Source: Shigella phage Sf22. From it: DNA of 64,000 nt. This document shows positions 2,688-62,424 of the stretch, piece by piece. Within the stretch, counting starts at the first letter, position 1. Each line of letters opens with the position of its first letter. Under the pieces are notes generated by a model. The model was not told the DNA's origin. It saw only the letters and a program-made list of their open reading frames with translations, and searched no databases. Made by a program: the position numbers and the translations under genes. Where the stretch lies: sequence record MF158045. The stretch is one strand, 5' to 3'.

Positions 2688-5600
2688 ATGGCTACTTTAA
2701 AACAAATACAATTTAAAAGAAGCAAAACCGCAGGAGCACGTCCTGCTGCTTCAGTATTAGCCGAAGGTGAATTGGCTATAAACTTAAAAGATAGAACAAT
2801 TTTTACTAAAGATGATTCAGGAAATATCATTGATCTAGGTATTGCTAAAGGCGGTCAAATTGATGGAAATGTAACTATTGATGGAACTTTACGCGTCAAT
2901 GGACCAATAAACAACTTTGGAAATTTTTCTACAAGTGGTACTATTACGGCAAGTAATATTGTTTCTGCTACAGTATTCAGATCAACATCCGGTTCATTTT
3001 ATACAAGAGCAATAAATGATACTGCAAATGCCCATCTTTGGTTTGAAAATACGAATGGATCGGAGAGAGGGGTTTTATATTCAAAACCACAGTCTGAAAA
3101 TGAAGGCGTAATTACAATGCGCGTTCGCCAAGGAACCGCAGCAGGGGCTCAAAATTCAGAATTTCATTTCATTTCTACTGATGGCGGTATCTTCCAGGCA
3201 CGCAAATTAACTGCTTTAACTTCTATTAGTACACCAACTATTAGTGTTAATTTAATTAATCATGATTCTAAAGCCTTTGGACAATACGATTCACAATCAT
3301 TAGTTCAGTATGTTTATCCTGGAACCGGTGAAACAAATGGTGTAAACTATCTTCGTAAAGTTCGAGCTAAATCAGGTGGAACTATTTACCATGAAATTTG
3401 TACAGCTCAGACTGGGCTAGCTGATGAAGTTTCTTGGTGGACTGGTAATATACCGTTATTTAAACTATACGGTATTCGTAACGACGGTAGAATGATTATT
3501 CGCAATAGCTTGGCCATTGGTACTGTGACGGAAGGGTTTCCGTCAAGCGATTATGGAAATACTGGGGTAATGGGAGATAGGTATTTAGCTCTTGGCGATA
3601 ATGCTTCTGGACTTAAATGGGTTCGTACTGGCGTTATTGACTTAATGGCTAACGGTATTTCTGCGGCGTCTATTATTAATAATGGTATTAACAGTACTAA
3701 AAAATTAATGGTTGGTTATAGTCGAGATTCTGGTTCTACTTGGGATTTCCCAAATAACAACCAAGCAATGTTTACTGCGCGTACCGATGTTGATGGTAAT
3801 AATAACGGTGATGGTCAAACTCATATCGGTTATAGCAGTAATTCTAAAATGTATCACTATTTCCGTGGTACAGGTCGTATGTCCGTTAGTATGGGCGATG
3901 GACTTCTTGTTGAGCCTGGCATTTTAGATATTAAAACTGGTTCAAATTCATTAAATTTGCGTGCTGATGGTACTGTTGCATCTACTCAAGAAGTTAAGCT
4001 TAATAATGGGTTATTCTTTAATAGTAGTTCTTCTAACGCCGGTCTTAAATTTGGCGCTTCTTCTTCTATAAATGGAACTAAGACAATACAATGGAACGCA
4101 GGCACCCGCCCGGGTCAGAACAAAAGCTATGTGACCATGAAAGCATGGGGCAATGCATTTGAGGATAATACTAATAAAAACAGAGAAACTGTATTTGAAT
4201 TAGGCGATGGACAGGGTTGGCATTTTTATTCACAGCGCGTTGCTCCTGCAGCAGGTTCTACTGCCGGTTCTGTTGAATTTGCGATGGCCGGTAGTTTATT
4301 AACTTCTGGTTCTATTACAACAAGATCTTCCCTGAATGCTGATAATGGATTGTCTGTAAATGGACAAGCTAAATTTGGTGGAACGGCTGATGTATTAAGA
4401 ATTTGGAATGCTGAATACGGTGCTATTTTCCGTCGCTCAGAAAGTAATCTTTATATTATACCGACTCCTAAAGATGCTGGAGAATCGGGCGGTATAAGTA
4501 ATCTTAGACCATTGATAATAGAACTGAACACTGGCACAGTTAAAATGTCGCATGATGTTCATTTAGGAGATTCTGGATCTGGTACAGGACTTTTACAAGT
4601 AAGTAATAGTCTTAAAACTATTAAAATGATATGTCCAGTAACTATTAATGAACGCAATGCAGCGCTTACCCTGGATTCTCCTTCATCTTCTTCTGCTAAT
4701 TATTTACAGGGTTCTAAAGCTGGAACTAGATCATGGTACGTTGGTCTTGGCGGCGCTGGAAATGATTTATCTCTTTATAGCCAATCTTATGGACATGGTC
4801 TTGTTATAAGTGATAATTTCACGTCAATCACTAAGCCTCTTAAAGTCGGCAATGCCCAATTAGGAACTGACGGTAATATTACCAATGGTTCAGGAAACTT
4901 TGTCAACTTAAATACCACGTTAAATCGTAAAGTTAATTCTGGATTTATTACTTATGGAGCAACCTCTGGATGGTATAAGTTTGCAACAGTAACAATGCCA
5001 CAATCCACTTCGACGGTCTTCTTTAAAATAGTTGGAGGTTCTGGATTTAATAGCGGATTATTCACACAATGTAATATTGCTGAAATTGTTTTACGTACTA
5101 GTAATGAAAGACCTTCTGACTTAAATGCTGTATTATACACAAGAACAACTGGAATGTATAGCGCAGCATTTAGAAATATTGCAGTTAACAATGTCTCTGG
5201 AAATACATATGACATTTATGTTTATGCTGGAACATATTGTAATCAACTAGTTTGTGAATGGTCATGTACCGAAAATGCTACTGTTAGCGTTATTGGTATT
5301 AACTCATCTACCCAATCACCTGTGGATGCTCTTCCAGATACAGCAGTTGATGGGCAAGTTGCTAATGTTCTTAATAACTTGGTTGATCGTGGTAAAGTTA
5401 AGCGTTATGAAGCCGATTCTGAAATAGCTATTAATAGCCAAACCGGTATTCGTATCAGAAGCAATGCCGATAAAACTGGTTCTGTGGCTACAATGTTACG
5501 AAATGACGGTGGCAGTTTTTATATTCTGTTTACAGATAAAAATGCCACTGATGGCGCAGCAACTGTTAATGGTGATTGGAATAGTAAACGTCCTTTCGCA

Positions 5601-6377
5601 ATTAACTTAACAACCGGCGAAGTGATGATGAATAACGGCATAGCTGTTCGCAGCGCTGCTTTATTCTATAATAGCATAAACGTCAAAGATAATGGTTCTA
5701 TTAACTTTGATAAGTCCGGCGCTAACCCGAGAAACATGCGTATATTCCATGCAGGTGATGGCACTCGTGGTAATCGCATTGAAATTGCTGATGAAACAAA
5801 CTATATTGCTTACTTCCAAAAATTACCTGGTGGTCAAAATCAGGTTTCATTCAATAGTGCTACACTTTCTGGATTAACACAGTGTAATCAATTTGGTGTT
5901 AACACAACAAACGCACTTGGTGGAAACAGTATAACATTTGGTGATACTGATACTGGTATTAAGCAAAATGGCGATGGATTATTAGACATATATGCGAACA
6001 ACGTGCAAGTGTTCCGTTTCCAAAATGGTGATTTGTACTCATATAAAAATATAAATGCTCCAAACGTTTATATTCGTTCTGATATTCGTTTAAAATCTAA
6101 CTTCAAACCTATCGAAAATGCACTTGATAAAGTTGAAAAACTCAATGGTGTCATTTATGATAAAGCTGAATACATCGGTGGAGAGGCAATTGAAACTGAA
6201 GCGGGTATTGTAGCTCAAACGTTACAAGACGTTTTACCAGAAGCCGTCCGTGAAACAGAAGACAGCAAGGGTAATAAAATACTCACTGTTTCTTCTCAAG
6301 CCCAGATTGCTCTTCTGGTTGAAGCTGTGAAAACGCTTTCTTCTCGTGTAAAAGAACTTGAATCTAAACTTATGTAA
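2688..6377 (+). CDS. 37: Long tail fiber distal subunit gp37 (T2-type, with C-terminal chaperone-like segment)
   Basis: 1229 aa, Gly/Ser/Asn/Thr-rich fibrous composition; follows gp36; longer than T4 gp37 (1026 aa) as in T2-type fibers. Confidence 0.9.
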   Translation: MATLKQIQFKRSKTAGARPAASVLAEGELAINLKDRTIFTKDDSGNIIDLGIAKGGQIDGNVTIDGTLRVNGPINNFGNFSTSGTITASNIVSATVFRSTSGSFYTRAINDTANAHLWFENTNGSERGVLYSKPQSENEGVITMRVRQGTAAGAQNSEFHFISTDGGIFQARKLTALTSISTPTISVNLINHDSKAFGQYDSQSLVQYVYPGTGETNGVNYLRKVRAKSGGTIYHEICTAQTGLADEVSWWTGNIPLFKLYGIRNDGRMIIRNSLAIGTVTEGFPSSDYGNTGVMGDRYLALGDNASGLKWVRTGVIDLMANGISAASIINNGINSTKKLMVGYSRDSGSTWDFPNNNQAMFTARTDVDGNNNGDGQTHIGYSSNSKMYHYFRGTGRMSVSMGDGLLVEPGILDIKTGSNSLNLRADGTVASTQEVKLNNGLFFNSSSSNAGLKFGASSSINGTKTIQWNAGTRPGQNKSYVTMKAWGNAFEDNTNKNRETVFELGDGQGWHFYSQRVAPAAGSTAGSVEFAMAGSLLTSGSITTRSSLNADNGLSVNGQAKFGGTADVLRIWNAEYGAIFRRSESNLYIIPTPKDAGESGGISNLRPLIIELNTGTVKMSHDVHLGDSGSGTGLLQVSNSLKTIKMICPVTINERNAALTLDSPSSSSANYLQGSKAGTRSWYVGLGGAGNDLSLYSQSYGHGLVISDNFTSITKPLKVGNAQLGTDGNITNGSGNFVNLNTTLNRKVNSGFITYGATSGWYKFATVTMPQSTSTVFFKIVGGSGFNSGLFTQCNIAEIVLRTSNERPSDLNAVLYTRTTGMYSAAFRNIAVNNVSGNTYDIYVYAGTYCNQLVCEWSCTENATVSVIGINSSTQSPVDALPDTAVDGQVANVLNNLVDRGKVKRYEADSEIAINSQTGIRIRSNADKTGSVATMLRNDGGSFYILFTDKNATDGAATVNGDWNSKRPFAINLTTGEVMMNNGIAVRSAALFYNSINVKDNGSINFDKSGANPRNMRIFHAGDGTRGNRIEIADETNYIAYFQKLPGGQNQVSFNSATLSGLTQCNQFGVNTTNALGGNSITFGDTDTGIKQNGDGLLDIYANNVQVFRFQNGDLYSYKNINAPNVYIRSDIRLKSNFKPIENALDKVEKLNGVIYDKAEYIGGEAIETEAGIVAQTLQDVLPEAVRETEDSKGNKILTVSSQAQIALLVEAVKTLSSRVKELESKLM

Positions 6378-6379
6378 AA

Positions 6380-6407
6380 GAGGGCTTCGGCCCTCTAAGG
6401 ATTTTTA
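6380..6407 (+). terminator. Hairpin with UUCG loop between genes 37 and 38
   Basis: AGAGGGC-TTCG-GCCCTCT then T-rich run; may act as attenuator or RNA stability element. Confidence 0.5.
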
Positions 6408-7202
6408 ATGGCAATTGTAGGTGTTCCTGGCTGGATTGGTGAATCTGCCGTGAATGAAACTGGACAGCGTTGGATGGATGCTGCGATGAGAGCAGTTCGT
6501 GTTTCAGTTCCTGGTTGGATGAGCTCAATGGCTGGGCAATCTAAAGAAGTATATTATAGCATTGGTGCTAGCAATTCTTACAATAAAGACACACTAATAA
6601 ATTATCTCAAATCTCAAGGTAGTACTCCTGTTGTTGTTACTATTACTGGTAACCTAGTTTCTTCATCTGCAAGGCAACCTTGCTTAGATTTTCCTAGCTC
6701 ATTAACTAATGCTTATGTAACGCTTATTATAAATGGCGGTGTAACAGTATATGGTCGCGGAGGACGCGGCGCGCAAGCGGGAAACCAGGCGGGTGAAGCT
6801 GGTGGTACTGCAATTAACAATGGTATAGGTACTCGTCTACGAATCACTAACAATGGAGCAATCGCTGGCGGTGGTGGTGGTGGCGGCGCCCAATCAACTG
6901 ATAATGGATGGGGAGGTAAATATGTTTCTGGCGGCGGCGGCGGACGTCCTTTCGGAGCTGGTGGTAATAATGGAGCAAAAGCTCCGGGTGCATCAGCATC
7001 TTTAACATCTCCAGGCGCAGGTGGAAAAATGTATTCCGGCGTTGGATACTACGGTGGTGACGGTGGTAATGTTGGTGAACGAGGTAAGGATGCGGTTAGA
7101 TTGAACGGCTATTCGAACTCACCTGGCGCAGCAGGTAAAGCTGTTACTGGTAACGCACCAACATGGACTAAGGTTGGTACAATATATGGTTCAAGAGTAT
7201 AA
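6408..7202 (+). CDS. 38: Receptor-recognising tail fiber adhesin gp38 (T2-type, glycine-rich motifs)
   Basis: 264 aa with several poly-Gly blocks (GGGGGGGAQ, GGGGG) separated by variable segments; immediately downstream of gp37. Confidence 0.85.
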   Translation: MAIVGVPGWIGESAVNETGQRWMDAAMRAVRVSVPGWMSSMAGQSKEVYYSIGASNSYNKDTLINYLKSQGSTPVVVTITGNLVSSSARQPCLDFPSSLTNAYVTLIINGGVTVYGRGGRGAQAGNQAGEAGGTAINNGIGTRLRITNNGAIAGGGGGGGAQSTDNGWGGKYVSGGGGGRPFGAGGNNGAKAPGASASLTSPGAGGKMYSGVGYYGGDGGNVGERGKDAVRLNGYSNSPGAAGKAVTGNAPTWTKVGTIYGSRV

Positions 7203-7208
7203 TTTTTG

Positions 7209-7216
7209 AATAAATA
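7209..7216 (+). promoter_or_regulatory. Possible late-promoter-like box (AATAAATA) upstream of t
   Basis: One mismatch to TATAAATA, about 19 nt before the t ATG. Confidence 0.3.
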
Positions 7217-8170: not shown

Positions 8171-8329
8171 TACCACTCAATTAGTTGACTTTGTTATAAT
8201 ATCATCAGACGCTTGATTTGTAAACTGGTCTGTGTTATTTTCTTCAAAAATTTTTTCTACGAATTCTTTGAACGACTCACGTTCCTGAGCTACATTATGC
8301 TCAATTACCATTTCAAGATTATGACTCAT
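8171..8329 (-). CDS. Small hypothetical protein (52 aa)
   Basis: Manual minus-strand translation MSHNLEMVIEHNVAQERESFKEF...; start ATG overlaps arn stop (ATGA). Not in ORF track (under 60 aa). Confidence 0.4.
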
Positions 8330-10660: not shown

Positions 10661-10690
10661 ATAGTACCACAGTATGCTTTGGTTGTAAAC
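10661..10690 (-). promoter_or_regulatory. T4-type early promoter upstream of motA
   Basis: Minus strand GTTTAC, 18-nt spacer, TACTAT. Confidence 0.65.
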
Positions 10691-10699
10691 CGTTTTGTG

Positions 10700-10739
10700 A
10701 AAAAAATTTAAAATAAAAAGGGAGAGCCGAGGCTCTCCC
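10700..10739 (-). terminator. Intrinsic terminator-like hairpin downstream of gene 52 cluster
   Basis: Minus strand GGGAGAGCC-tc-GGCTCTCCC followed by U-rich tract; lies just upstream of the motA promoter. Confidence 0.6.
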
Positions 10740-10744
10740 TAAAA

Positions 10745-13951: not shown

Positions 13952-13981
13952 ATAGTACCACGGAAGAACAGTCTTGTAAAC
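13952..13981 (-). promoter_or_regulatory. T4-type early promoter upstream of small membrane peptide ORF
   Basis: Minus strand GTTTAC, 18 nt, TACTAT. Confidence 0.55.
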
Positions 13982-14166: not shown

Positions 14167-14442
14167 TCATAGCTCAATCTCAGCGATTTTCATTTCATTA
14201 CTATTAATAGCCTCTTTAAGACTATCTGAAAGAATTACATTCCAGTGGTCATTCATATGACCATTAACTAAGCGTGTAATTTCTTCAGGAGTTGAAAAAT
14301 AAGGCTGATCAGACTCCCAATGCGATAATCCTAAGCGAGTATAAATCATGCCTTCATCATCGCTCGAATATTCAACTGACACAAACTCATCAGTTATTTT
14401 ATGTTTAGCGTAATAAAATTTAAATTTCATTTTATTCTCCAA
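14167..14442 (-). CDS. Hypothetical protein (91 aa)
   Basis: ORF track; early promoter immediately upstream. Confidence 0.55.
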   Translation of the reverse strand: MENKMKFKFYYAKHKITDEFVSVEYSSDDEGMIYTRLGLSHWESDQPYFSTPEEITRLVNGHMNDHWNVILSDSLKEAINSNEMKIAEIEL

Positions 14443-14467: not shown

Positions 14468-14497
14468 ATAGTACCACGGTCCTTGTGGTATGTAAAC
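14468..14497 (-). promoter_or_regulatory. T4-type early promoter upstream of ORF 14167-14442
   Basis: Minus strand GTTTAC, 18 nt, TACTAT; same leader motif as the motA promoter. Confidence 0.6.
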
Positions 14498-18497: not shown

Positions 18498-18701
18498 TTA
18501 ATTCATATTACGTTTAATAACTTCAGCAACTTCTAGTAGTTCATCTTTAGTTGCGGTGTCGGATTGAATTTTATCTCTAATATCTTTAAAGCGGTTTTTA
18601 AATTCTTCGGCTTCTCCCATATCGAAAAAGCGTTGAATGATTCTATATTCTCGATGAACTGCTTTATCAAAAAGTTCTAAATTTACTCTATATGATTTCA
18701 T
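18498..18701 (-). CDS. rIIA.1-like small protein (67 aa)
   Basis: ORF track; strong consensus early promoter upstream. Confidence 0.6.
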
Positions 18702-18727
18702 TTCAATATCCTCATTTGCCCAATTAA

Positions 18728-18756
18728 TTATACCACATCCTTGTGGTAAAGTAAAC
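18728..18756 (-). promoter_or_regulatory. T4-type early promoter upstream of rIIA.1
   Basis: Minus strand GTTTAC, 17 nt, TGgTATAAT (perfect extended -10). Confidence 0.75.
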
Positions 18757-20576
18757 TACTGGCTCATCCATTCTTTACGAAGGTCAGCATTATCTCCCAT
18801 GAGCATTTCAAAAAGCTCTTTCCAATTCTCAGGAAGTTTAACAACATCATATACTGGATTTTGAATCATCTCACGATATTCAGATTTTTCCAAAGAGCCA
18901 AGTCCCTTAATATAACGGATGCTATGTTTAGGTAGAGCATCTTTGGCACTCTCATATTCAGCGACTGTATAAAACCATTCTTGTTTTTTACCGACCTGAG
19001 CGATGATTACAGGAGTTTTGACAAAGCGAATTCGTCCTTGCTCAAACAATTCTGGCCAATTACTAAAAAATCCGAGCAGAGAAGGATAAATGCTTCCTAA
19101 ACCATCATGGTCAGCATCAGTCATAATAGCAATATTATGATAATTCAAGTTTTCAGCTTTTTCACCGAGAACTAGACCAGTGATTGCGCAAATATCAAAT
19201 AATTCTTTGTTTTTAAGCATATCTGCATAAGACATACCCCAACTGTTGAGAACTTTACCACGCAATGGATAACCACCGTGAAGTTCTTTATCACGAACAT
19301 CAATAAGATATCCGATAGCCGAATCACCCTCAGTCAAGAAAAGAGTAGTATCAGCATCTTTACCGCAAAGATTCGCTTTGATATGTTTATGAACTTTAGC
19401 TTTAGAAGCCTTTTTAGCTGCTTTAGTTTCAGCTGCTTTTTCTGCTGCCAATTTACGGGCCAAGGCAGCTTCAATAATCGGCATTAAAATTGCTTCATTA
19501 TTTAGAATAGCGCGTGAAATCTTTTTAGCATCAAGCTGAATATGACTACGAATTTCGCCAAATGGAGAAGTCAAACGCTCTTTAGTTTGAGAATCAAATC
19601 GCATGTTTTTCATATCACGGACAAACATAACGATAGTCAAACATTCTTTGACACGTGCTTTAGTTACATCAATTTTGAACTTACGTTTGATTTGTGGAAT
19701 AAGGTCTTCACAAATATCATCCATAACACAGTCAATGTGATGGCCACCATTCTTAGTGTGAATGTTATTCACATAAGTTAATTGGCGAAATCCATCCGGT
19801 GAACGACCAACCGCAATAGAACAATTTTCTTGTTCTTGAACAATAGCATGTTCATCATACTGTCGTGCATATTTCTTAAAATTGCCCTGAACCTTTTTAC
19901 CATTAAAGGTAAATTGAATATCAGGATAAACTACTGCAAGTGTCTGGAGACGATCCAGTGTAATGTCAAGATAAACTTGGGACAGCTCATTAGTTTCAAA
20001 TGACATAAAATCTGGAATGAAAGTAACACGAGTTCCTTTCCATTTTCCAGGAATAGTTTCCCAGGATTTATTTTCCATGCCATTTGAACAACGAACTACA
20101 ATATTATTTTGACCATCGCCAGTTTCACCGACAAACATCACAGAAAAAATGTTAGTTAAACTAGAACCAACACCATTCATACCACCGGTGACACGTTCTT
20201 TATCATCACCAAAGTTACCACCCGCTTTTGGAATAGTCCAAGCAGCAACTGGACCAGGAATTTCTTCACCGGTAGGTGTTTTAACCATCGCTTGTGGAAT
20301 ACCACGACCGTTATCTTCAACTGTTACTTGATTGTTTTTGATAGTAACATTAATTTTATTTGCGAATTTAAACTTAGTACGAATACCTTCATCTACTGAG
20401 TTATCGATAATTTCATCAATAAGCTTAACAAGACCAGGTACATACTGAACACTTTCCCATTTACCAAACAGAAAGCGCTCATGCATTTCATTAGCAGAAG
20501 AGCCAATATACATGCCGCTACGCTTTTTGATATGTTCAATATCGCTCAGAATTTTAATTTCATTCTTAATCATCAC
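18756..20576 (-). CDS. 39: DNA topoisomerase II large (ATPase) subunit, uninterrupted gp39/gp60 equivalent
   Basis: 606 aa, GHKL ATPase plus Toprim-like regions in one frame; T4 splits this into gp39 and gp60. Confidence 0.9.
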   Translation of the reverse strand: MMIKNEIKILSDIEHIKKRSGMYIGSSANEMHERFLFGKWESVQYVPGLVKLIDEIIDNSVDEGIRTKFKFANKINVTIKNNQVTVEDNGRGIPQAMVKTPTGEEIPGPVAAWTIPKAGGNFGDDKERVTGGMNGVGSSLTNIFSVMFVGETGDGQNNIVVRCSNGMENKSWETIPGKWKGTRVTFIPDFMSFETNELSQVYLDITLDRLQTLAVVYPDIQFTFNGKKVQGNFKKYARQYDEHAIVQEQENCSIAVGRSPDGFRQLTYVNNIHTKNGGHHIDCVMDDICEDLIPQIKRKFKIDVTKARVKECLTIVMFVRDMKNMRFDSQTKERLTSPFGEIRSHIQLDAKKISRAILNNEAILMPIIEAALARKLAAEKAAETKAAKKASKAKVHKHIKANLCGKDADTTLFLTEGDSAIGYLIDVRDKELHGGYPLRGKVLNSWGMSYADMLKNKELFDICAITGLVLGEKAENLNYHNIAIMTDADHDGLGSIYPSLLGFFSNWPELFEQGRIRFVKTPVIIAQVGKKQEWFYTVAEYESAKDALPKHSIRYIKGLGSLEKSEYREMIQNPVYDVVKLPENWKELFEMLMGDNADLRKEWMSQ

Positions 20577-20625: not shown

Positions 20626-20641
20626 AAAGGCCCGAAGGCCT
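20622..20641 (-). terminator. UUCG-loop hairpin downstream of lipoprotein ORF, upstream of gene 39
   Basis: AAAGGCC-TTCG-GGCCTTT (minus-strand reading). Confidence 0.45.
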
Positions 20642-20642
20642 T

Positions 20643-20912
20643 TTATTTAAAACGAATAGTTGAATCCTTAAAGAACAGCCCAGAACATACTGTTCCTTCT
20701 ACTTTCTGCCCAGTAGGTCCAACAGCACGAAATCCAGTATGTTGGAAATCATTTTCAGAGCAACCAAACCAATTATATCCAGTGATTTCAATATTAGTAA
20801 AACCGCTTGATGACAAAATTTTGGTTGCATTATCAGCATCAGTACATCCTGCTAAAGACACTGCTAATACTAATGCTGCGATAGAACGATTAATATATTT
20901 CATAATTTTCAC
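20643..20912 (-). CDS. Putative lipoprotein (89 aa)
   Basis: Signal peptide with lipobox LAGC (AALVLAVSLAGCTD). Confidence 0.55.
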   Translation of the reverse strand: MKIMKYINRSIAALVLAVSLAGCTDADNATKILSSSGFTNIEITGYNWFGCSENDFQHTGFRAVGPTGQKVEGTVCSGLFFKDSTIRFK

Positions 20913-22408: not shown

Positions 22409-22451
22409 TATCAGTAGTTGATATTGATATAGTACCATAATCAACTACTGA
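22409..22451. repeat. 13-bp perfect inverted repeat with 17-nt loop
   Basis: ATCAGTAGTTGAT at 22409-22421 and ATCAACTACTGAT at 22439-22451. Confidence 0.85.
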
Positions 22452-22482
22452 TGTATATAGTTTTATGAAAAAATTTTAAACT

Positions 22483-23018: not shown

Positions 23019-23048
23019 ATTATACTCTGGTCCCAAGAGTTTGTAAAC
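23019..23048 (-). promoter_or_regulatory. T4-type early promoter upstream of ORF 22483-22974, -10 inside an inverted repeat
   Basis: Minus strand GTTTAC, 18 nt, TATAAT; TATAAT lies in the loop of GGGACCA/TGGTCCC (23013-23034). Confidence 0.65.
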
Positions 23049-23495: not shown

Positions 23496-24038
23496 TTAAT
23501 CTAAGGTAATAAAGCCTTTTAATTCGGCATGGGATTTACGGAACATTACTTGGTGCCCGCCAATGATAACTTGATCATCTGGAACTTCGTATACAGCGAG
23601 ATAAAATCCTTTAGAAGATAATTCTTCACGCTCTTCTCGTGTGAACCATCTCATCATATCATATTCGCTAGCGAAAGCAAAATGATAAAGAGCTATAAAC
23701 CATCCTGGAATATAGTGATCTACGCCTACATATTCTTCTTTCTCAAAATTAGTATTAATTGCTATATTAGCATTTTTAACTAATAATTTGTCTTCGTGTG
23801 GAAGAGGAATTCTTTTATTATCATTACTATGATGCATAAAATTAGGTCTGTCATAACCTACGTGTAATAACCACTCTTCGCTCCATGAATCTATTATACT
23901 CCTGTATGGCGTTATTTGAACACAAAGATCTCGACGTATTGTTATAGCATCTTCATAATTAAGAATACTAAACGATGATTCAACACGATAAATTTTCATT
24001 TTATTATCCTCAGTAGCTATGGTGTTATAATACCACAA
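23496..24038 (-). CDS. Hypothetical protein (180 aa)
   Basis: ORF track; early promoter upstream. Confidence 0.5.
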   Translation of the reverse strand: MWYYNTIATEDNKMKIYRVESSFSILNYEDAITIRRDLCVQITPYRSIIDSWSEEWLLHVGYDRPNFMHHSNDNKRIPLPHEDKLLVKNANIAINTNFEKEEYVGVDHYIPGWFIALYHFAFASEYDMMRWFTREEREELSSKGFYLAVYEVPDDQVIIGGHQVMFRKSHAELKGFITLD

Positions 24039-24056
24039 CTAACCGAGGAAGTAAAC
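24027..24056 (-). promoter_or_regulatory. T4-type early promoter upstream of ORF 23496-24038
   Basis: Minus strand GTTTAC, 18 nt, TATTAT. Confidence 0.6.
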
Positions 24057-27890: not shown

Positions 27891-27920
27891 ACTATAACAT
27901 TTTTACTTTAACTTGTAAAC
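27891..27920 (-). promoter_or_regulatory. T4-type early promoter upstream of srd-position ORF
   Basis: Minus strand GTTTAC, 18 nt, TATAGT. Confidence 0.55.
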
Positions 27921-29226: not shown

Positions 29227-29256
29227 ATCATATCATCGTTAGAAAGGAAAGTAAAC
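29227..29256 (-). promoter_or_regulatory. T4-type early promoter upstream of modB
   Basis: Minus strand GTTTAC, 18 nt, TATGAT. Confidence 0.6.
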
Positions 29257-31481: not shown

Positions 31482-31511
31482 ATTATACCATACTCATTTT
31501 GATATGTAAAC
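31482..31511 (-). promoter_or_regulatory. T4-type early promoter upstream of ORF 31249-31455
   Basis: Minus strand GTTTAC, 18 nt, TGgTATAAT. Confidence 0.7.
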
Positions 31512-31520: not shown

Positions 31521-31545
31521 GAAAAAGGACTCCCGAAGGAGTCCT
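31521..31545 (-). terminator. UUCG-loop hairpin downstream of soc
   Basis: Minus strand GGACUCC-UUCG-GGAGUCC then U-rich tail; followed by an early promoter. Confidence 0.55.
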
Positions 31546-31553
31546 TAAATTAT

Positions 31554-31827: not shown

Positions 31828-32037
31828 TTAAATTACATGATTATTTATAATAAATTCTCGCGGAACGTTAAAATACCCGATTTTAGTTAATATAACAACA
31901 TCACCGTTAATAATTACCGGAGAATAATCTTCTGGAGCATTAAATTTCCAATGGGCTCTAATATTATATCCATCAGAACCAAATGCTCGAGTAGCCGGTC
32001 TCCCGGCTTTTTGCCACGCGTAGAAATCAAATTTCAT
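31828..32037 (-). CDS. Hypothetical protein (69 aa)
   Basis: ORF track. Confidence 0.45.
   Translation of the reverse strand: MKFDFYAWQKAGRPATRAFGSDGYNIRAHWKFNAPEDYSPVIINGDVVILTKIGYFNVPREFIINNHVI
31842..31849 (-). promoter_or_regulatory. T4-type late promoter (TATAAATA) for soc
   Basis: Exact TATAAATA on minus strand about 30 nt upstream of the soc ATG. Confidence 0.7.
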
Positions 32038-32228
32038 TTTGAATGCTCTATAATTAATTTTAAAGCTTCTTCACTGACAAAAATTTCGTCAGGACCTTCT
32101 ATAACTTCAACCATACGAAGTTGATTAGTTAAGAGCTCACATACGAGCTCCTTGTTATAATCTTTAAATAGCTGGTCAATACGTTTCTTGTGGGCTTTCT
32201 TAAGCTGGCGTTTATTTAAACGAGCCAT
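32034..32228 (-). CDS. Hypothetical protein (64 aa)
   Basis: ORF track; stop/start overlaps on both sides. Confidence 0.45.
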   Translation of the reverse strand: MARLNKRQLKKAHKKRIDQLFKDYNKELVCELLTNQLRMVEVIEGPDEIFVSEEALKLIIEHSK

Positions 32229-32746
32229 TAATAACCTCGGTCTTGACGAGCGAAGTTTTCAGCATTTTTCAGATAATAAAGTTTAAAGATTTCTTCAGCC
32301 GTAAGACCGAGACCTTGGAACATGTTCAGAACGAAATGAAGAATATCAATCATTTCGAATTTAATTTCCAACTGGTCTTGTGGAGACAAATCAGTAATTA
32401 AAGTTTCACGACGTTCACCATGTTGAGCTTTCCAAGGCTTCCATACAGCAGATGCATCTTTTTCGCCATTGCTCATACCACCAAGAGAAGTCAATAGTTC
32501 GCGGAATTCATCATCAATATAATCTTTCTGATTACGCAGCCAATCAACAACTTCACCCGCAGTAGCCAAATCATCAGGATGACGGTTATATTCAGGTTTA
32601 TCTTTAGCTAAACGAACCTGAAGAGATTTCTGCATATCAAGCATAACTTGCAGCGGGTCTTTTTCATCACCGAGAATATCCCAGTATTCATTTTGAGCTT
32701 TATCAGCGCCTTCAATCAGTTGTGAACATTCATTAAAGTATGCCAT
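32228..32746 (-). CDS. 56: dCTP pyrophosphatase gp56 (MazG-like)
   Basis: Internal start MAYFNECSQLIEG gives 172 aa (T4 gp56 171 aa); the ORF-track 5-prime extension is unlikely. Confidence 0.8.
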   Translation of the reverse strand: MAYFNECSQLIEGADKAQNEYWDILGDEKDPLQVMLDMQKSLQVRLAKDKPEYNRHPDDLATAGEVVDWLRNQKDYIDDEFRELLTSLGGMSNGEKDASAVWKPWKAQHGERRETLITDLSPQDQLEIKFEMIDILHFVLNMFQGLGLTAEEIFKLYYLKNAENFARQDRGY

Positions 32747-35991: not shown

Positions 35992-36049
35992 AACAATCTC
36001 CTCATTTAACCAACAAGACTACTATACCATAGTCTCGTCAGCTTGTAAA

Positions 36050-37477
36050 CTAAAATTTTAATTCATTCGCCAAAGCATCTAACTGAGCTCGAGTCGATTC
36101 GTTTCTTTGATAGCGATTCTGTTCAGCCTGAATCTGTTGTGAACCTGCTACCTCACTCACTTCAGTTGGAGTAGAATCTTGTTCAATTTCTACCCATTTC
36201 TGATTTCCCTTTTGAACACCCATCAAAAACTTATTCCACTTATTCTTATCGCCATATCGTGATTTGATTTGCTTAATGAGTTGTTGTTCAGCAGCTGCTA
36301 GCTCCTCGGTTTCAATGACCGCAAGCATAAAATCAGCTGTTGCTGGAAGACCAGCAGATTCTGCAATATCGCTCATGTTAACATCAGAAGAGTCCCAAGC
36401 TTGTTTACCGACCTGTGCTGCAGTCCAAAGAACAGTTTCGGTTTCAACAGCCAGAGCACGCAATTCCTCTGCGATAGCTTTAACAGTTGTGTAACTATTT
36501 TCTGAATAAACTCGGATGCGACAAGATTTACAAATACCCAGATAGTCGACAATAATGATTGTTGGAACAAAATTCTTTTTGAGCTTTAATTCATTTAAAA
36601 GTGATCGAAATGTATTAGCATCTGCTCCACCAGTAGGGTACTGTTTAACGATTAAACGACCAAGAGTAGATTTCTCACGCCATTTTTCCATTTTTCCTTT
36701 ATACTCGGCGTAAGAAATATGTCCATCATCAATATCGTCAAGAGAAACATCGAGCATATTAGCATCAATACGTTTAGCGCAGACTTCTTCTGCCATTTCC
36801 ATGGAGATATAAAGAACGTTATGACCAAGCTGCAAATAATCTGCTGCTAATGAACAAAGTCCTAATGATTTACCAACGTTAACGCCAGCCATTAAAACGT
36901 TCAGTGTTCCAGTCTCAGCTCCGCCTTTAGTAATTTTGTTTAGAATTCTGAGTTTAAATGGAACCTTACGAGCTTTATTCATATAAGATAGCCAACGCGC
37001 TTCGTAGTCATCCATCCAATCATGACCAACGTAACTATCAAATGAAATTGATAATGCTTGGCGCATGATGTCAGGAATAGCACCAACATCCGGCATTTTC
37101 TTATTTCGTTTTTCCGGAGGAAGTTCAGCATTAGTTTGAATTTCGATTATTTTAGACGTAGCATTAAACATCGCCCTTTGCTGAACATATTTTTCTGTTT
37201 CTTTTACTAACCAACTGTGGTCTTCCGGAGAATCAGCTAGTTTTGAAATAAGTGTTTTTACACCAGAATATTCTGTTTCAGTAAATGAACTATTTTCTAA
37301 TGCAACATTTAACGCATTAATAGATGGAACGCTATGGTACTCATTAACATGAGATTTAATTAATTTGAATGTATTTTTAGCTGGACCACTTTCAAAATAT
37401 TCTGAATCCATATATGGCCAAACTTTTGAAAAATAAGCTTGATCAAATATAAGATGAGAAAGAATAATTTCTACCAC
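36050..37477 (-). CDS. 41: Replicative DNA helicase gp41 (DnaB-like)
   Basis: 475 aa (T4 gp41 475 aa); Walker A GVNVGKS. Confidence 0.95.
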   Translation of the reverse strand: MVEIILSHLIFDQAYFSKVWPYMDSEYFESGPAKNTFKLIKSHVNEYHSVPSINALNVALENSSFTETEYSGVKTLISKLADSPEDHSWLVKETEKYVQQRAMFNATSKIIEIQTNAELPPEKRNKKMPDVGAIPDIMRQALSISFDSYVGHDWMDDYEARWLSYMNKARKVPFKLRILNKITKGGAETGTLNVLMAGVNVGKSLGLCSLAADYLQLGHNVLYISMEMAEEVCAKRIDANMLDVSLDDIDDGHISYAEYKGKMEKWREKSTLGRLIVKQYPTGGADANTFRSLLNELKLKKNFVPTIIIVDYLGICKSCRIRVYSENSYTTVKAIAEELRALAVETETVLWTAAQVGKQAWDSSDVNMSDIAESAGLPATADFMLAVIETEELAAAEQQLIKQIKSRYGDKNKWNKFLMGVQKGNQKWVEIEQDSTPTEVSEVAGSQQIQAEQNRYQRNESTRAQLDALANELKF

Positions 37478-37849: not shown

Positions 37850-39005
37850 TTAACTGCTCGAGGTCAGTTTCTAAATCAGCTGCTGATTTACTTTTACTTT
37901 CTGGAGATTTAAATTTTTCAACCTTTGAGTTAATCAATTCATCAACTTCCGCTTCAACAATTTCATTACTATCAATAGCACCTAACTGATAAGCACGCTT
38001 AATAGCATCTCGGAATGGTTGATGCTTAAATAAAGGACCCCAGAATGTAGTGCAGTTAGTATCTTTTGCACGCCAAGATTTTTCTTCGCGAATCATCTCG
38101 CCAGTTTCTTCGTCAAGAAATTCACGCGCATACCAACCATTTTTAGGTTTTACTACAAATCCTAATTCTAGAGCCATATCTAACAATCCAGAATAAGGAT
38201 CGATACCACCGTCAAATTTAACATCAATAAAGAATTTACTTTTTTCTTTAACGGTACGAGATTTTTCTACATTTAGAACAAATTGATACCCCTGAAGATC
38301 AGAACCATCTTTAATCTGACGCTTACCGATAATGAATACAGTATCAGCCGAATACATTACGCCTGTACCACCTGTCATCACGGTTTTACTAAACATTTCA
38401 ATTGTTTCAATTGTATGGTTAACCGCAACACATGGAATATTTTTAATGCTAAAATAAGGAGTAACAATACGGAATAATGACTTCAGTGATTTAGCACGAG
38501 TCATATCTGCCACAGATTTTTCATTCAAGGCATCTTCAGTTTCTTTCTTAGAAGCCATATTACCGATTGAGTCGATGAATACAATAACTTTTTCACCGCG
38601 CTCAATAGCTTCAAGCTGATTCACCATATCAATTTTCAGCTGTTCAACTGACTGGATTGGCGTATGAATTACTCGTTCCGGGTCAACTCCCATGGATCGC
38701 AAATAAGCTGGAGTAATACCAAATTCGCTATCATAGAATAGACAAACCGCGTCAGGATATTTGTTCAAATACGCCGCAACCATAGTCAAAGACATATTTG
38801 ATTTAAAGTGTTTAGAAGGACCTGCAAAAATAGTTAAACCAGACTGCATGCCGCCATCAATCGCACCAGAAATAGCAATATTAAGCATTGGGATTTTTGT
38901 ACGGATTACATCCTTTTCATTAAAGAATTTAGATGTAGTCAGTTCAGCAGTCATTTTAGAAGTGGAAGCTTTAATCAAACGGGATTTTAAATCTGCAATA
39001 GACAT
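37824..39005 (-). CDS. uvsX: Recombinase UvsX (RecA-like)
   Basis: 393 aa; RecA-fold nucleotide-binding loop (GPSKHFKS); synteny. Confidence 0.95.
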   Translation of the reverse strand: MSIADLKSRLIKASTSKMTAELTTSKFFNEKDVIRTKIPMLNIAISGAIDGGMQSGLTIFAGPSKHFKSNMSLTMVAAYLNKYPDAVCLFYDSEFGITPAYLRSMGVDPERVIHTPIQSVEQLKIDMVNQLEAIERGEKVIVFIDSIGNMASKKETEDALNEKSVADMTRAKSLKSLFRIVTPYFSIKNIPCVAVNHTIETIEMFSKTVMTGGTGVMYSADTVFIIGKRQIKDGSDLQGYQFVLNVEKSRTVKEKSKFFIDVKFDGGIDPYSGLLDMALELGFVVKPKNGWYAREFLDEETGEMIREEKSWRAKDTNCTTFWGPLFKHQPFRDAIKRAYQLGAIDSNEIVEAEVDELINSKVEKFKSPESKSKSAADLETDLEQLSDMEEFNE

Positions 39006-39082
39006 TCATTTTTTCCATAGGCATCATTATATTTTCCTCACTGGTTAAAGATAGAGTAATTATAACACAATAAATTTAGGCA

Positions 39083-39931
39083 TTAATCAACTGCTATTGG
39101 ATGAATAGCATTAAACTTATGAAATGCTTCTGATTTTTCTTTACGCGAAACACACATGCGAAGAACCTTTAATGGCTCGTCTTCTTCACCCAACGATTTT
39201 CGTTTTTCAATATTAGAAGTTTTCCAACGAGCTTGCTCTGGAAACTCTCTATTGATTTGCTCAAGCGCTCTATTATGTTTAGAATTACTACGAATTGAAC
39301 TGCACCCGCCAGGAGCTTGTGCTTTTCCAGATACAACCAGATATTTGAACAAGGCCAAATGCGGATAACCTTGATTAATTAAATTGAGAAATGCATACAT
39401 ATCTTCGCACAAATCAATTTTTCCATACCCAATTTGTTCTGTCGTAAGTTTTCCGAGGTCATACCATGTATTCGTGAATCCATATGAATTTTCACGATAA
39501 TTACCCCAAGATGAAGTAATTTTAAAAATAGGTAGACGAGCATGGCCATGATAATACCCACAATCCATGGCATCCTCAACATATTGAATCAATTCATAGA
39601 ACTGTTCACGGGTTAATTGATTGACTTTATCTACACAACGACGGTCATCTCTTTTTCGCATTGAACTCATACGAATAGTAGTATCATCGTCAATCATCCA
39701 GATTCGTTGACCTGTATACATATCAGTAATTGCTTTACGAGTACCGGCAATTCCGTTTACATCATCAGGAATAGTTATAATTTTAGCTCTAGACCCATAA
39801 GCGTCATGATAAGCTTTTTCTTCATGTTCACGCACTACAATATGGGGTTCATAATCAGTCGGAAACATATTAAGGGCAGAAACTGCCCCTACACGCTGAT
39901 AACTTGGAATTACGAATTGAATCATTTCCAC
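39083..39931 (-). CDS. Putative glycosyltransferase at the beta-gt locus (candidate beta-glucosyl-HMC alpha-glucosyltransferase of T2/T6 type)
   Basis: 282 aa; DxD-like motif IWMIDDDTTI; occupies the uvsX-42 interval but does not resemble T4 beta-gt (351 aa). Confidence 0.5.
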   Translation of the reverse strand: MEMIQFVIPSYQRVGAVSALNMFPTDYEPHIVVREHEEKAYHDAYGSRAKIITIPDDVNGIAGTRKAITDMYTGQRIWMIDDDTTIRMSSMRKRDDRRCVDKVNQLTREQFYELIQYVEDAMDCGYYHGHARLPIFKITSSWGNYRENSYGFTNTWYDLGKLTTEQIGYGKIDLCEDMYAFLNLINQGYPHLALFKYLVVSGKAQAPGGCSSIRSNSKHNRALEQINREFPEQARWKTSNIEKRKSLGEEDEPLKVLRMCVSRKEKSEAFHKFNAIHPIAVD

Positions 39932-40662
39932 TCACCGTTATAATCTTTTTTCACAATATGAGTTTCGCCAGTATTCCACCAATGATCAACCAAGTAAAAA
40001 TGACGAGAATATACATGAAGACTTCCAACATTCCATATAATAGAACCCGCTTTATACTGACGAGTTGAATCGCCTGCATTCAAATCAGATACTAATTTAT
40101 CTAATACGTATTTTTGCCATGCATAATCATTACGGAATCCGAAGACCACGTCATTTGAGCGCATGCTTACTACTGCATTGACTTTCTTATCACGAATCAG
40201 GTACTGTACTGTATTAGTACACATGAAATCTGACATACCATCTTTATTGTAGTCAAATTGCATGGATGGACGAGTATAAATCATGATACCACGTCGAGAA
40301 TCAGGATTTTGACCAAGTTCAGCTAAACACATATCATACTGGGCATAGTTATCTTCTGACCAAATAGCCCAACCATAGTTCGAGTTAATTTCGCCTTTAG
40401 AAGATGCTACTTGTTGCCAAATCTTCGGTGTTTCACCTGGAATATCTTTAACAAACAAGCTCTTAGATTTATACCATTCAAGTTCACGCTGAATGTATTC
40501 ATCATTAAGAGCGCCAAAAATAAAGGGTTCATCTGCTACAAATGATGCGCCAATAATTTCAATAGTTTTAACGCCAGTTTTATCAACTACGAAATCTTTT
40601 TCTTTTAATGCAAGCCCCAAATGAAGACGGATTTCTTCAACTGTCATAGAGTCACTAATCAT
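39922..40662 (-). CDS. 42: dCMP hydroxymethylase gp42
   Basis: 246 aa (T4 gp42 246 aa); synteny. Confidence 0.9.
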   Translation of the reverse strand: MISDSMTVEEIRLHLGLALKEKDFVVDKTGVKTIEIIGASFVADEPFIFGALNDEYIQRELEWYKSKSLFVKDIPGETPKIWQQVASSKGEINSNYGWAIWSEDNYAQYDMCLAELGQNPDSRRGIMIYTRPSMQFDYNKDGMSDFMCTNTVQYLIRDKKVNAVVSMRSNDVVFGFRNDYAWQKYVLDKLVSDLNAGDSTRQYKAGSIIWNVGSLHVYSRHFYLVDHWWNTGETHIVKKDYNGEWK

Positions 40663-41456: not shown

Positions 41457-41705
41457 TCAAATGCAAGTAGTAATTACTCCAGTAGTGCTTATGCAGGTAT
41501 TACCCATTTGCACACCTAAAGATCCATTTGTATTCACATGAAGATTATCATCAATTTTAACTGATATTTTACCATTAGTGTGAATAACGGTGCTAGATTC
41601 AATCACAGGTTGAGTATCATTTTCAACACTAACAAATGGAACTGCTGCTAATGCAACTAAACAAACTGCTAAGCATCCCATAACAATTTTCATTTTATTC
41701 TCCAA
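41457..41705 (-). CDS. Putative secreted/membrane protein (82 aa)
   Basis: N-terminal signal-like segment MKIVMGCLAVCLVALAAVPFV; early promoter upstream. Confidence 0.5.
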   Translation of the reverse strand: MENKMKIVMGCLAVCLVALAAVPFVSVENDTQPVIESSTVIHTNGKISVKIDDNLHVNTNGSLGVQMGNTCISTTGVITTCI

Positions 41706-41727: not shown

Positions 41728-41757
41728 ATAGTACCATGGAAGAACAGTCTTGTAAAC
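41728..41757 (-). promoter_or_regulatory. T4-type early promoter upstream of ORF 41457-41705
   Basis: Minus strand GTTTAC, 18 nt, TACTAT. Confidence 0.6.
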
Positions 41758-41844
41758 AGTTTTGTGAAAATTTTTTAGGGAATTCTAAAGGTCCAGAATC
41801 ATCTGTTTTTCATAAGTATAGATTTATATTACTTGTATGAAAAA

Positions 41845-41860
41845 GGGACCCGGAGGTCCC
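41845..41860 (-). terminator. Hairpin downstream of gene 43
   Basis: GGGACC-tccg-GGTCCC (minus-strand reading). Confidence 0.45.
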
Positions 41861-41873
41861 CAGATTTATTCTA

Positions 41874-50109: not shown

Positions 50110-51125
50110 TGCGTTGCCTCTACATATAACTGATTTGCATATTGAATAAGTGCTTCGCGGTCAGAATCAGTGATGTCTGGAATTGCATTAATGTATTCTT
50201 CCATCAACGTCTGAAGAGATTGAACTTCAACTTCTTCACTGTCATCTGACTCGACAGAGTTATCAATCTTTGACACAACTCGTAACGAATGCACAACTTT
50301 TTCTAGTTCAGATTCGAACTTCGTTAGATTTTTGTCTACTTCAGTTACTATAACACGTACTGATAGATTTGTAAAATCTTTATAGTCAATTTTTCCTTTA
50401 AATGGATAATGAATTCTACGATGCCAGGTAGTGTTGTTTGGAATAAATTCCATTCGTTCTGTTTCTGTATCAAACATCCAGAACCCACGAGGGTCATTCT
50501 CGTCACCTGCAGTTAGTGTCCATGGTGTCCCAATATATCTGACGTTTGCAGCCTCAGAAATAGTATGGAAGTGACCAGACCACACCTCTTTATAAGTCTT
50601 AAGGAAATCAGGTTCAAGACCGTGAGATTTCATTCCTTTATAAAAATAAAATCCATTCAGTTCCCAGTGACCAACACAAAAAGAAGCAGAAGAAGTTTTT
50701 ATGTGCTCGAGAATTTCACCAGTATTTTCTTCACACATCCAAGGAATTAAATCAATTAAACATCCGTCAAAATCTACTGTAGTAGGCTTATCATATACTT
50801 TAACATTAGGATATTTAGCCAAAAGCTCAGTAGAGGCATTTGGAGTTAAAGTATTTTTAAAGTGCATATCATGGTTTCCTACAACAGTATGCAGGGTAAT
50901 ACCAGCATCATCAAGCATTTGAACTATTTCACGAGCGAACTCCATAGTTTTATGTGTGATTGCTTTTCGCACATCAAAAATATCGCCGTATTGAATCCAT
51001 GTAGTAATTCCATTTTTCTTAGAATATTCTATTGCTTGTTTAATTCCATCTAACTGAATGGATTGAACCCACTCATCATCGGCTTTAACGCCTAAATGCC
51101 AATCACCTAAATTTAAAATTTTCAT
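50106..51125 (-). CDS. 47: Recombination nuclease subunit gp47 (Mre11/SbcD-like)
   Basis: 339 aa (T4 gp47 339 aa); N-terminal phosphoesterase motif LGDWHLG. Confidence 0.9.
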   Translation of the reverse strand: MKILNLGDWHLGVKADDEWVQSIQLDGIKQAIEYSKKNGITTWIQYGDIFDVRKAITHKTMEFAREIVQMLDDAGITLHTVVGNHDMHFKNTLTPNASTELLAKYPNVKVYDKPTTVDFDGCLIDLIPWMCEENTGEILEHIKTSSASFCVGHWELNGFYFYKGMKSHGLEPDFLKTYKEVWSGHFHTISEAANVRYIGTPWTLTAGDENDPRGFWMFDTETERMEFIPNNTTWHRRIHYPFKGKIDYKDFTNLSVRVIVTEVDKNLTKFESELEKVVHSLRVVSKIDNSVESDDSEEVEVQSLQTLMEEYINAIPDITDSDREALIQYANQLYVEATQ

Positions 51126-51287
51126 ATATCAAGAACCGTCATTGAAATGCAAAATAAAATTATTGAAATAAATCCATCTGGAGTGCTAAAGAACCCAATC
51201 CAGCATGCTCTAGTGAATAGATAAAATGCAAGAAAAAGTATCACATATCCAAGAAATATCATTATATCAAACTCCGTATAAAGCTAA

Positions 51288-51303
51288 AGGGCCGAAGCCC
51301 TTT
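51288..51303 (-). terminator. UUCG-loop hairpin at 3-prime end of a-gt
   Basis: AAGGGC-TTCG-GCCCTT overlapping the a-gt stop codon. Confidence 0.45.
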
Positions 51304-52552: not shown

Positions 52553-52557
52553 ATATA

Positions 52558-52571
52558 GGAGCCGAAGCTCC
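52558..52571 (-). terminator. UUCG-loop hairpin upstream of a-gt middle promoter
   Basis: GGAGC-TTCG-GCTCC (minus-strand reading). Confidence 0.4.
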
Positions 52572-52747
52572 TATCCGCATAATACGCCATACAGAGGCTC
52601 GTTAGAACTTTTAAATTTTATGCGCTTATATTTTATAGTTCCTTCTGCTTTAGCTTTATCATGAGACTCTTTAAAGCGTCTCATCATTTCCTCTTTAGAG
52701 GAACGAATTTTATTATAATCTATTTCAGAAGTCTGGGTGTTCATCTT

Positions 52748-55279: not shown

Positions 55280-55573
55280 TCAGCTGTAACGATAACACTC
55301 GTTTGATTTACGTTTAGCAACTCGTTGAGAAGTATTATAATCAAAATCATCGTCAATGTAAACTGATTTTTTCAACTTTCTTACTTCACCACGTAATTGG
55401 CGATTTAGCTCATCTTTAACTTCTGAATCAATACCTTTCATTCTACGCCATTTATCTGAGCGAAAAATGTTTTCAACCATATCTTTATGACTTACCCCAT
55501 CAGGAGCTTTACGCTTTCCGAAATAGTCATAATCACGAACTTTCAAGTCTTTACGACGATACGTTTTACCCAT
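55280..55573 (-). CDS. Small basic protein (about 97 aa)
   Basis: Internal start MGKTYRRKDLKVRDYDYFGKRK; highly basic. Confidence 0.4.
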   Translation of the reverse strand: MGKTYRRKDLKVRDYDYFGKRKAPDGVSHKDMVENIFRSDKWRRMKGIDSEVKDELNRQLRGEVRKLKKSVYIDDDFDYNTSQRVAKRKSNECYRYS

Positions 55574-62372: not shown

Positions 62373-62424
62373 ATTCTTCTCACTTGGTTAATGGTTTATA
62401 CTCCGAGCCATCCTTGGCTTTAAA

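Follow-up and report, generated by a model that had tools for sequence, protein, structure and literature searches.

The two nearly identical promoters found 45 kb apart in the genome of Shigella phage Sf22 are, very probably, T4-type early promoters that represent inherited copies of an old, selected Tevenvirinae core that is now fixed in Tequatrovirus. This reading builds on the observed sequence and position of the pair, the orthology of both sites with T4, the conservation of their flanks and the distribution of the core. The finding is real and largely known, as it combines ordinary strong T4 early promoters with an already published hypothesis of promoter-linked gene exchange, the PeSL (promoter-early stem-loop) model.

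The analysis covered 64,000 nucleotides of record MF158045 (hereafter, the window). The window is a segment of a Tequatrovirus (T4-like) genome, and a 3-kb piece around the pair matches about 500 Tequatrovirus genomes at 95–99% identity. Alignment to T4 (AF158101) places the window between about 153.8 kb and, past the genome origin, about 51.5 kb of T4. Because genes lie on the minus strand from about 7.9 kb of the window onward, all features described in the initial annotation are on this strand. The promoter pair and the elements directly associated with it are as follows.

18727–18756, minus strand: early promoter 5′ of rIIA.1, GTTTAC-TTTACCACAAGGATGTGG-TATAAT; ortholog of T4 2429–2458
63455–63484, minus strand: early promoter 5′ of nrdC.4, with the core of the rIIA.1 site but G at position 10; ortholog of T4 50944–50973
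18498–18701, minus strand: rIIA.1 homolog, the first gene served by the 18756 promoter
62425–63426, minus strand: nrdC.4 homolog, the first gene served by the 63484 promoter
18731–18748, minus strand: inverted repeat inside the spacer, TACCACA-AGGA-TGTGGTA (7-4-7); second copy at 63459–63476, with TGCCACA

The two promoters, GTTTACTTT(A/G)CCACAAGGATGTGGTATAAT, are identical at 29 of 30 positions. The initial annotation described them as near-identical, which is accurate, although it placed the start of the first one nucleotide off, at 18728. The identity block is in fact 32 nt long, because both 30-mers follow the first two bases (TA) of a TAG stop codon, and it ends with TATAAT; no similarity between the flanks was detected outside this block. 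No third copy of the 30-mer with three or fewer mismatches is present in the window, and none is expected from shuffled sequences. At both sites, the first base of the −35 element is the last base of the stop codon (TAG/TTTAC). At site 1, this stop codon ends the topoisomerase II large-subunit gene, which is unsplit in this phage, and rIIA.1 lies on the other side; site 2 is located between the nrdC.5 and nrdC.4 homologs, and its −35 G closes the TAG of the nrdC.5 homolog.

Both sites contain a GTTTAC −35 element, an 18-nt gap, the extended −10 element TGG and the −10 element TATAAT. The distance from TTTACW to the −10 element is 17 bp, with TGn and TAnnnT in place, and an ATG preceded by a Shine-Dalgarno (SD) sequence follows the −10 element at 26 nt (rIIA.1) or 29 nt (nrdC.4). 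Both 30-mers are found unchanged in T4, A/G difference included, and at the corresponding junctions. The T4 ortholog of 63455–63484 is labeled ‘early promoter 50.0’ in GenBank record U76612, and other depositors, too, annotated a ‘promoter’ at both sites. The label, the promoter elements and the position of the start codons bear out the identification of the sites as early promoters in the initial annotation. T4 early promoters are UP/−35/TGn/−10 promoters for the host σ70 polymerase (PMC2988021). Like the T4 early promoters, ‘early promoter 50.0’ among them, with whose orthologous members they agree in sequence and junction, the Sf22 sites precede early genes on the early strand and contain GTTTAC, TGn and TATAAT. 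From the T4 annotation, the literature and the quality of the motifs, we infer that both sites are active as σ70-dependent early promoters of the T4 type.

Unlike typical T4 early promoters, however, neither site has an A/T-rich UP element, which most T4-type members carry at about −40 to −60. The 24 nt upstream of the two promoters are coding, with A+T contents of 58% and 62% and no A/T run of 6 or more, whereas the remaining intergenic early promoters of the window have 62–88% A+T upstream, with A/T runs; the two are the only intergenic early promoters in the window without such a run. UP elements are missing because the −35 element overlaps the upstream stop codon and the sequence further upstream is coding. 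The pair would thus be compact promoters in which the placement of the −35 element over TAG leaves no room for an UP element.

The pair belongs to a larger set of early promoters in the window.

8196–8225, minus strand: early-promoter motif 5′ of asiA (T4 161.2 kb)
10661–10690, minus strand: early promoter of motA; promoter/leader family member
13952–13981, minus strand: early promoter, ndd.4 (T4 166.8 kb); 29/30 match with 41728–41757
14468–14497, minus strand: early promoter, ndd.6 (T4 167.09 kb); promoter/leader family member
22429–22458, minus strand: degenerate early promoter (−35 ATATAC) with family leader, 5′ of an inserted 58-aa ORF and cef
23019–23048, minus strand: early promoter, motB (T4 7.2 kb), with TAG/TTTAC stop overlap
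24027–24056, minus strand: early promoter 5′ of motB.2 (T4 8.2 kb)
27891–27920, minus strand: early promoter, srd (T4 11.85 kb)
29227–29256, minus strand: early promoter, modB (T4 13.19 kb)
31482–31511, minus strand: early promoter, mrh.2 (T4 15.29 kb), the only one with a UUCG hairpin directly 5′
36021–36050, minus strand: early promoter, dmd (T4 20.6 kb), with TAG/TTTAC overlap with the gene 41 stop
41728–41757, minus strand: early promoter after gene 43 (T4 27.08 kb, imm.1)
55334–55363, minus strand: early-promoter motif within the 55.5 homolog (T4 41.26 kb)
55779–55808, minus strand: early promoter, 55.6 (T4 41.7 kb)
59836–59865, minus strand: early-promoter motif within a coding region, 5′ of pin (T4 47.45 kb)

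The motif GTTTAC-N18-TAnnnT is present at 16 sites on the minus strand (about 3 expected by chance) and at 18 on both strands, compared to 3.3 ± 2.0 in shuffled sequences, where 18 sites were reached in 0 of 100 shuffles. The GTTTAC promoter set proposed in the initial annotation is therefore genuine. The overlap of the −35 G with the last base of a stop codon is found at four of the 16 early promoters (18756, 23048, 36050 and 63484). Across the 120 promoter pairs, the mean spacer identity is 4.6 ± 2.1 over 15 positions, with two outliers at 14/15: the rIIA.1/nrdC.4 pair and the pair 13952–13981 with 41728–41757, which the initial annotation does not mention. The spacer of this second 29/30 pair is AAGACTGTTCTTCC(G/A)TGG; its copies are 28 kb apart, and T4 has both. 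The 41757 promoter is a mosaic, with a spacer like that of 13981 and flanks like those of 14497 and 10690, and the spacer of the 14497 promoter, TACCACAAGGACCGTGGTA, is a relative of the rIIA.1/nrdC.4 core shifted by 1 nt. A motif search of the window with CCANAGGANTGG yielded nothing further. A palindrome, GCCAAGGATGGC, is located in the nrdC.4/nrdC.3 intergenic region (62405–62420, minus strand) within a TTTAAA-N18-TATAAA frame, and its center, AAGGATG, resembles the spacer of the pair.

Generic promoters of the form GTTTAC-N15-TGGTATAAT in assorted viral contigs have 136 distinct spacers among 141 sites, so that shared spacers imply copying rather than convergence. Chance as the source of the likeness within the pair was rejected, given the 0 matches in shuffles, a spacer identity 4.4 standard deviations above the mean and the uniqueness of these generic spacers.

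According to the initial annotation, such promoters are usually paired with UUCG hairpins, and many are immediately preceded by one. The hairpins relevant to this claim are the following.

10719–10740, minus strand: terminator-type hairpin with a 9-bp stem, CUCG loop and U-rich tail, −18.6 kcal/mol
31525–31546, minus strand: terminator-type hairpin with a 9-bp stem, UUCG loop and U-rich tail, −15.7 kcal/mol
41844–41861, minus strand: hairpin after gene 43 with a UCCG loop and U tail, −13.9 kcal/mol, 87 nt before the 41757 promoter

When up to 90 nt upstream of each of the 16 promoters were searched for hairpins with loops of 3–8 nt and stems of at least 5 bp, a strong hairpin was found at only two (31511 and 10690). 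No hairpin with a stem of at least 5 bp and at least three G-C pairs is present within 90 nt upstream of 18756 or 63484. Thus, the claimed coupling does not hold for the set, nor for the pair. The two examples cited for it are located where they were reported; the loop near 10690, however, is CUCG, not UUCG, and the C-G-closed UUCG loop is found at 31525–31546. The latter hairpin lies 13 nt before the −35 element of the 31511 promoter (z = −4.2; tail UUUUCAUUU), and that at 10719–10740 lies 28 nt upstream of the motA promoter (z = −4.6; tail UUUUUAUUUU). Both have the features of intrinsic terminators, a stable, G+C-rich stem-loop with a U tract behind it on the transcribed strand.

C(UUCG)G tetraloop hairpins and intrinsic terminators were reportedly described in T4 intercistronic regions by Tuerk and colleagues in 1988. 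The window resembles T4 in this respect, with 11 G+C-rich UUCG hairpins on the transcribed strand, compared to about 1.7 in shuffled sequences, several of them with U-rich tails. These hairpins are mostly not coupled to early promoters. Among the 13 strong minus-strand hairpins, two or three are located before early promoters, three before MotA-box sites resembling middle promoters and one before a TATAAT alone; six are followed by no more than a ribosome-binding site and a start codon. The UUCG hairpins at 20626–20643, 51285–51304 and 52555–52574 (minus strand) are immediately followed by (T/A)GCTTTA, with a −10 hexamer 11–12 nt further on; these are units of a terminator and a MotA-type middle promoter, comparable to the ‘PmSL’ of phage nt-1.

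The conservation of the pair was assessed by comparing a 361-nt probe across each junction with related phage records. The flanks are contiguous in 482 of 497 records (97%) at the rIIA.1 site and in 464 of 492 (94%) at the nrdC.4 site, where all record counts, here and below, are inflated by database redundancy (many near-identical isolates). The genes flanking the pair are essentially fixed within relatives. Flank comparison was the check proposed in the initial annotation, and its outcome is close to the fully conserved arrangement that the annotation itself named as incompatible with shuffling. About 6% of the records lose homology approximately 20 nt inside nrdC.4, just past the promoter. 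In the one such record examined, Tequatrovirus phage PD112 (1801–2044), nrdC.4 is missing directly after the ‘50.0’ promoter, and a gene of the size of nrdC.3 is next.

Exact matches to the 32/33-mers, counted at the best place per record and not split by site, were found in 574 records for the A-variant query and in 404 records for the G-variant query (the site 2 33-mer). Given that the 33-mer is exact in 404 records, whereas the 361-nt region around site 2 is only 90–95% identical in 315 of 492, conservation of the promoter element and its spacer exceeds that of the sequence around them. These identity-band counts point to purifying selection on the spacer. In all genomes inspected (T4, five IMG/VR genomes and the matches listed, T2 for example), the rIIA.1 site has the A variant and the nrdC.4 site the G variant, and T4 and the window carry identical alleles at every orthologous promoter, the mosaics included.

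The early region of the window differs from that of T4 in about 17 places. Six of the differences are homing-endonuclease or intron blocks (gene 60/mobA, segF, segA, mobB, mobC and I-TevII), and three are small, unrelated ORFs that are not in T4, located directly behind members of an approximately 100-bp promoter/leader family (at 14.4, 22.4 and 41.7 kb).

14167–14430, minus strand: small ORF not in T4, between the family leader and the ndd.6 start, with junction microhomology AATGAAA
22209–22385, minus strand: small ORF not in T4, fused to the family leader, 5′ of cef
41457–41693, minus strand: small ORF not in T4, between the family leader and imm.1, with junction repeat ATGAAAAT
32786/32807, 31849–32265, 38993–39940, 52495/52520, 57015/56995 and 58291/58294: sites of losses or replacement relative to T4

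Several other differences from T4 were noted. The topoisomerase II large subunit is encoded by a single unsplit gene (18756–20576, minus strand), and the T4 2806–3911 block with the gene 60 translational-bypass region, 60.1 and mobA is absent. The window also lacks T4 dam, segF, segA, mobB, mobC and the nrdD intron with I-TevII, and a different 282-aa ORF (39083–39931) is present in place of the T4 beta-glucosyltransferase. The distal tail-fiber/adhesin region (genes 37/38; 3598–7210, plus strand) has diverged strongly and is 65–79% identical to T4 or does not align.

The common downstream leader described in the initial annotation is confined to the five promoters at 10690, 13981, 14497, 22458 and 41757, and the rIIA.1/nrdC.4 pair is outside this family. 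Its members share an UP-like block, AAAATTTTCACAAAAC, as well as GTGGTACTAT, ACAACTATCAACTACTGATAC and TTGGAGAATAAAATG, about 100 bp in total, with a variable spacer. Each of the three ORFs is inserted precisely where the family leader meets the T4 gene, and the junctions show ATGAAA(AT) microhomology. Relatives are polymorphic at the two loci tested; some have the ORF, while others lack it, have another in its place or have a longer version. Only 399 of 517 records cover the locus at 14.2–14.5 kb completely, and 318 of 513 that at 41.4–41.8 kb. In T4, ndd.6 and imm.1 (166996 and 27013 regions; window 14199 and 41452) have the promoter, the leader and the first four codons (ATGAAAATCGCT) in common; because these codons are shared, the repeated cassette reaches into coding sequence.

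The idea that promoter cassettes mediate modular shuffling is already published as the PeSL model (PMC2839356, PMC4122927). PeSL cassettes of about 100 bp (A/T block, −35, −10 and SD) in T4-type phages, located in hyperplastic regions, mediate ORF insertion, deletion and replacement (Arbiol et al. 2010, PMC2839356), and mini-circles, the product of recombination between neighboring cassettes, have been demonstrated experimentally in RB49/phi1 (PMC2839356). The model was extended to T4/PST, with the consensus TTTACW-N17-TAYWAT, and illustrated with the ndd region (Comeau et al. 2014, PMC4122927). Two features of the window are PeSL-like. Units of an early promoter and an upstream stem-loop are present (10719–10740 with 10661–10690, and 31525–31546 with 31482–31511), and the promoter/leader family, whose shared block is of the PeSL length, flanks ORFs that vary among relatives, the ndd region included. 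In contrast to PeSL, most family members at variable loci have no adjacent stem-loop. The rIIA.1/nrdC.4 pair differs from PeSL throughout: it lacks the upstream stem-loop and the A/T block, shares 32 bp rather than about 100, and its flanking ORFs are conserved rather than different between relatives. PeSL-type gene turnover is thus visible in the window, but at the long promoter/leader family, where the long shared flanks of this group would provide the homology for gene gain and loss beside promoters. The suggestion in the initial annotation that promoter cassettes are substrates for shuffling stands for the family loci and fails for the pair on which it was centered.

The core of the pair is not restricted to Tequatrovirus. 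With its spacer, (A)CCACA(A/T)GGATGTGG, it is also present, at junctions that are not orthologous, in a Rosemountvirus and in no fewer than five further genera of Tevenvirinae; the 37 unique contexts come from Jiaodavirus, Karamvirus, Winklervirus, Dhakavirus, other T4-like genomes and the Rosemountvirus. It is found after the DNA polymerase gene 43 in Jiaodavirus, Karamvirus and Winklervirus, 5′ of a cef-like gene in Jiaodavirus, and after alt, again as TAG/TTTAC, in Dhakavirus. Scans in which one half of the spacer was fixed recovered the other half in most promoter-context matches, and as the cross-genus examples were retrieved by core similarity, the apparent invariance of CCACA...GTGG is partly due to ascertainment. 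In Jiaodavirus KPV15, the core is present in two of the 13 early-type promoters of the syntenic 50 kb, at loci unlike those of T4, and the possibility that it is the majority early-promoter type elsewhere was rejected on this count. Only Tequatrovirus-type records contain the second 29/30 allele (AAGACTGTTCTTCC), and the wide spread is therefore specific to the CCACA core.

In the unrelated, 52-kb Salmonella phage rivia (Rosemountvirus), the sequence GTATAC-TTTACCACAAGGAAGTGG-TATAAT is located 5′ of a DEAD-box helicase gene (2501–2531). This site is identical to the T4 core at 29 of 31 aligned positions, spacer included. A search of 185,579 bacterial and archaeal genomes yielded three matches to the core, approximately the number we estimate for chance, none of them in a GTTTAC context. 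A host origin of the core was rejected on the basis of these chance-level matches. The spacer sequence was not found in a phage context in the literature searched; Nolan et al. (2006) note no more than a GT-rich stretch 5′ of −12. Sensing of the spacer sequence near −18 by σ70 has been described (PMC3130263).

Several explanations for the likeness of the two promoters, other than old inheritance, were considered. That they form a PeSL-type cassette, with both copies serving as live substrates of homologous recombination that shuffles the flanked genes, appears unlikely. Exchange of this kind is documented in T4-type phages, T4/PST among them (PMC2839356, PMC4122927); in the window, three non-T4 ORFs abut promoter/leader cassettes, with both tested loci polymorphic; the loss of homology inside nrdC.4 in about 6% of relatives and the absence of nrdC.4 from PD112 are in line with it, as is the presence of the core at different junctions on the subfamily scale. 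Yet the pair has only 32 bp in common and no stem-loop, A/T block or shared leader, and its flanks are kept in 97% and 94% of relatives. Moreover, the copies are direct repeats, so that a crossover between them would delete 45 kb with essential replication genes, and the A/G difference is identical in T4, T2 and Sf22. This last observation also bears on recent duplication or ongoing gene conversion, that is, concerted evolution that keeps the copies alike. The very active recombination of T4 and the existence of mosaic promoters, such as 41757, which combines the 13981 spacer with the 14497 flanks, would be compatible with conversion, but T4 and window alleles are identical at every orthologous promoter, mosaics included, none of the genomes inspected has the A or the G variant at the other locus, and there is no flank homology for conversion tracts. 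We regard this process as very improbable.

The inverted repeat in the spacer raises the question of whether it is recognized as such. If the dyad TACCACA-AGGA-TGTGGTA were an operator, a dimeric phage or host protein would shut the promoters off in a manner similar to lambda PR/PL. The 7-4-7 repeat between the −35 and −10 elements is perfect and its location recalls lambda PR/OR1 (a comparison of working principle only), other genera and the unrelated Rosemountvirus have a conserved spacer core, an A-to-T change in Karamvirus extends the palindrome to CCACAT-GG-ATGTGG, and the mechanism of T4 early-promoter shut-off is stated to be unknown (PMC2988021). Unlike in lambda, however, the symmetry is partly forced: the TGn/−10 consensus largely dictates the right arm. 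Nor is the symmetry kept by compensatory change, as the two outermost bases of the left arm may be TA, TG, CG, CA or GA, and T-to-C changes disrupt the inner A-T pair in four or five contexts, in both cases without compensation, whereas the non-symmetric center AGGA is conserved. The promoters do not serve a coherent regulon, no protein is known to bind the dyad and no candidate for one was identified, and bacterial genomes contain the core only as the three chance matches without promoter context. Together, these observations make an operator quite unlikely. The least probable explanation, which we consider hardly credible, is an RNA-level element, with the dyad on read-through transcripts folding as a 3′ hairpin that stabilizes or processes mRNA. 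A 7-bp stem is part of the minimum-free-energy fold (−8.2 and −9.2 kcal/mol) and lies immediately past the stop codon, but the fold energy is ordinary (z of about −1.3, with 16–24 of 200 shuffles folding as well), there is no U tract, it is the sequence and not the pairing that is conserved, and no Rfam family matches anywhere in the window.

By the preferred explanation, the inheritance of an old promoter core, host RNA polymerase, unmodified or Alt-modified, would use both promoters in the first minutes of infection, with the rIIA.1–rIIA transcript starting at one and the nrdC.4-to-nrdC transcript at the other. Their near-identity would be inherited, not recent, as T4 carries both sequences at both junctions. 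The core, composed of the −35 element, (A)CCACA(A/T)GGATGTGG and the −10 element, is spread over different junctions in the Tevenvirinae, where purifying selection would keep it, and would have been copied between promoter positions at some point in the history of the T4 superfamily. Both copies would now be fixed within Tequatrovirus and would not be active substrates of shuffling.

A further, tentative proposal, which we consider doubtful, is that the spacer (A)CCACA(A/T)GGATGTGG has a function of its own in Tevenvirinae early promoters and is under selection for it, and that it was copied, as part of an approximately 30-bp unit, between non-orthologous junctions in at least six genera and into the Rosemountvirus. 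It might be read by RNA polymerase, compensating for the missing UP element where a compact promoter abuts a stop codon, or be the binding site of a putative factor. A role of the spacer in polymerase recognition of compact promoters lacking UP elements is possible.

Thus, the rIIA.1/nrdC.4 pair is a poor example of the PeSL hypothesis, and following it up located the promoter-linked gene turnover of Sf22 at the promoter/leader family, at 14.4, 22.4 and 41.7 kb. The cross-genus conservation of the spacer core is the part of the finding worth noting, because promoter spacers normally vary freely. If the spacer is directly recognized by RNA polymerase or a regulator, this would be relevant to the success of T4 early promoters in competition with host promoters, as well as to their shut-off.
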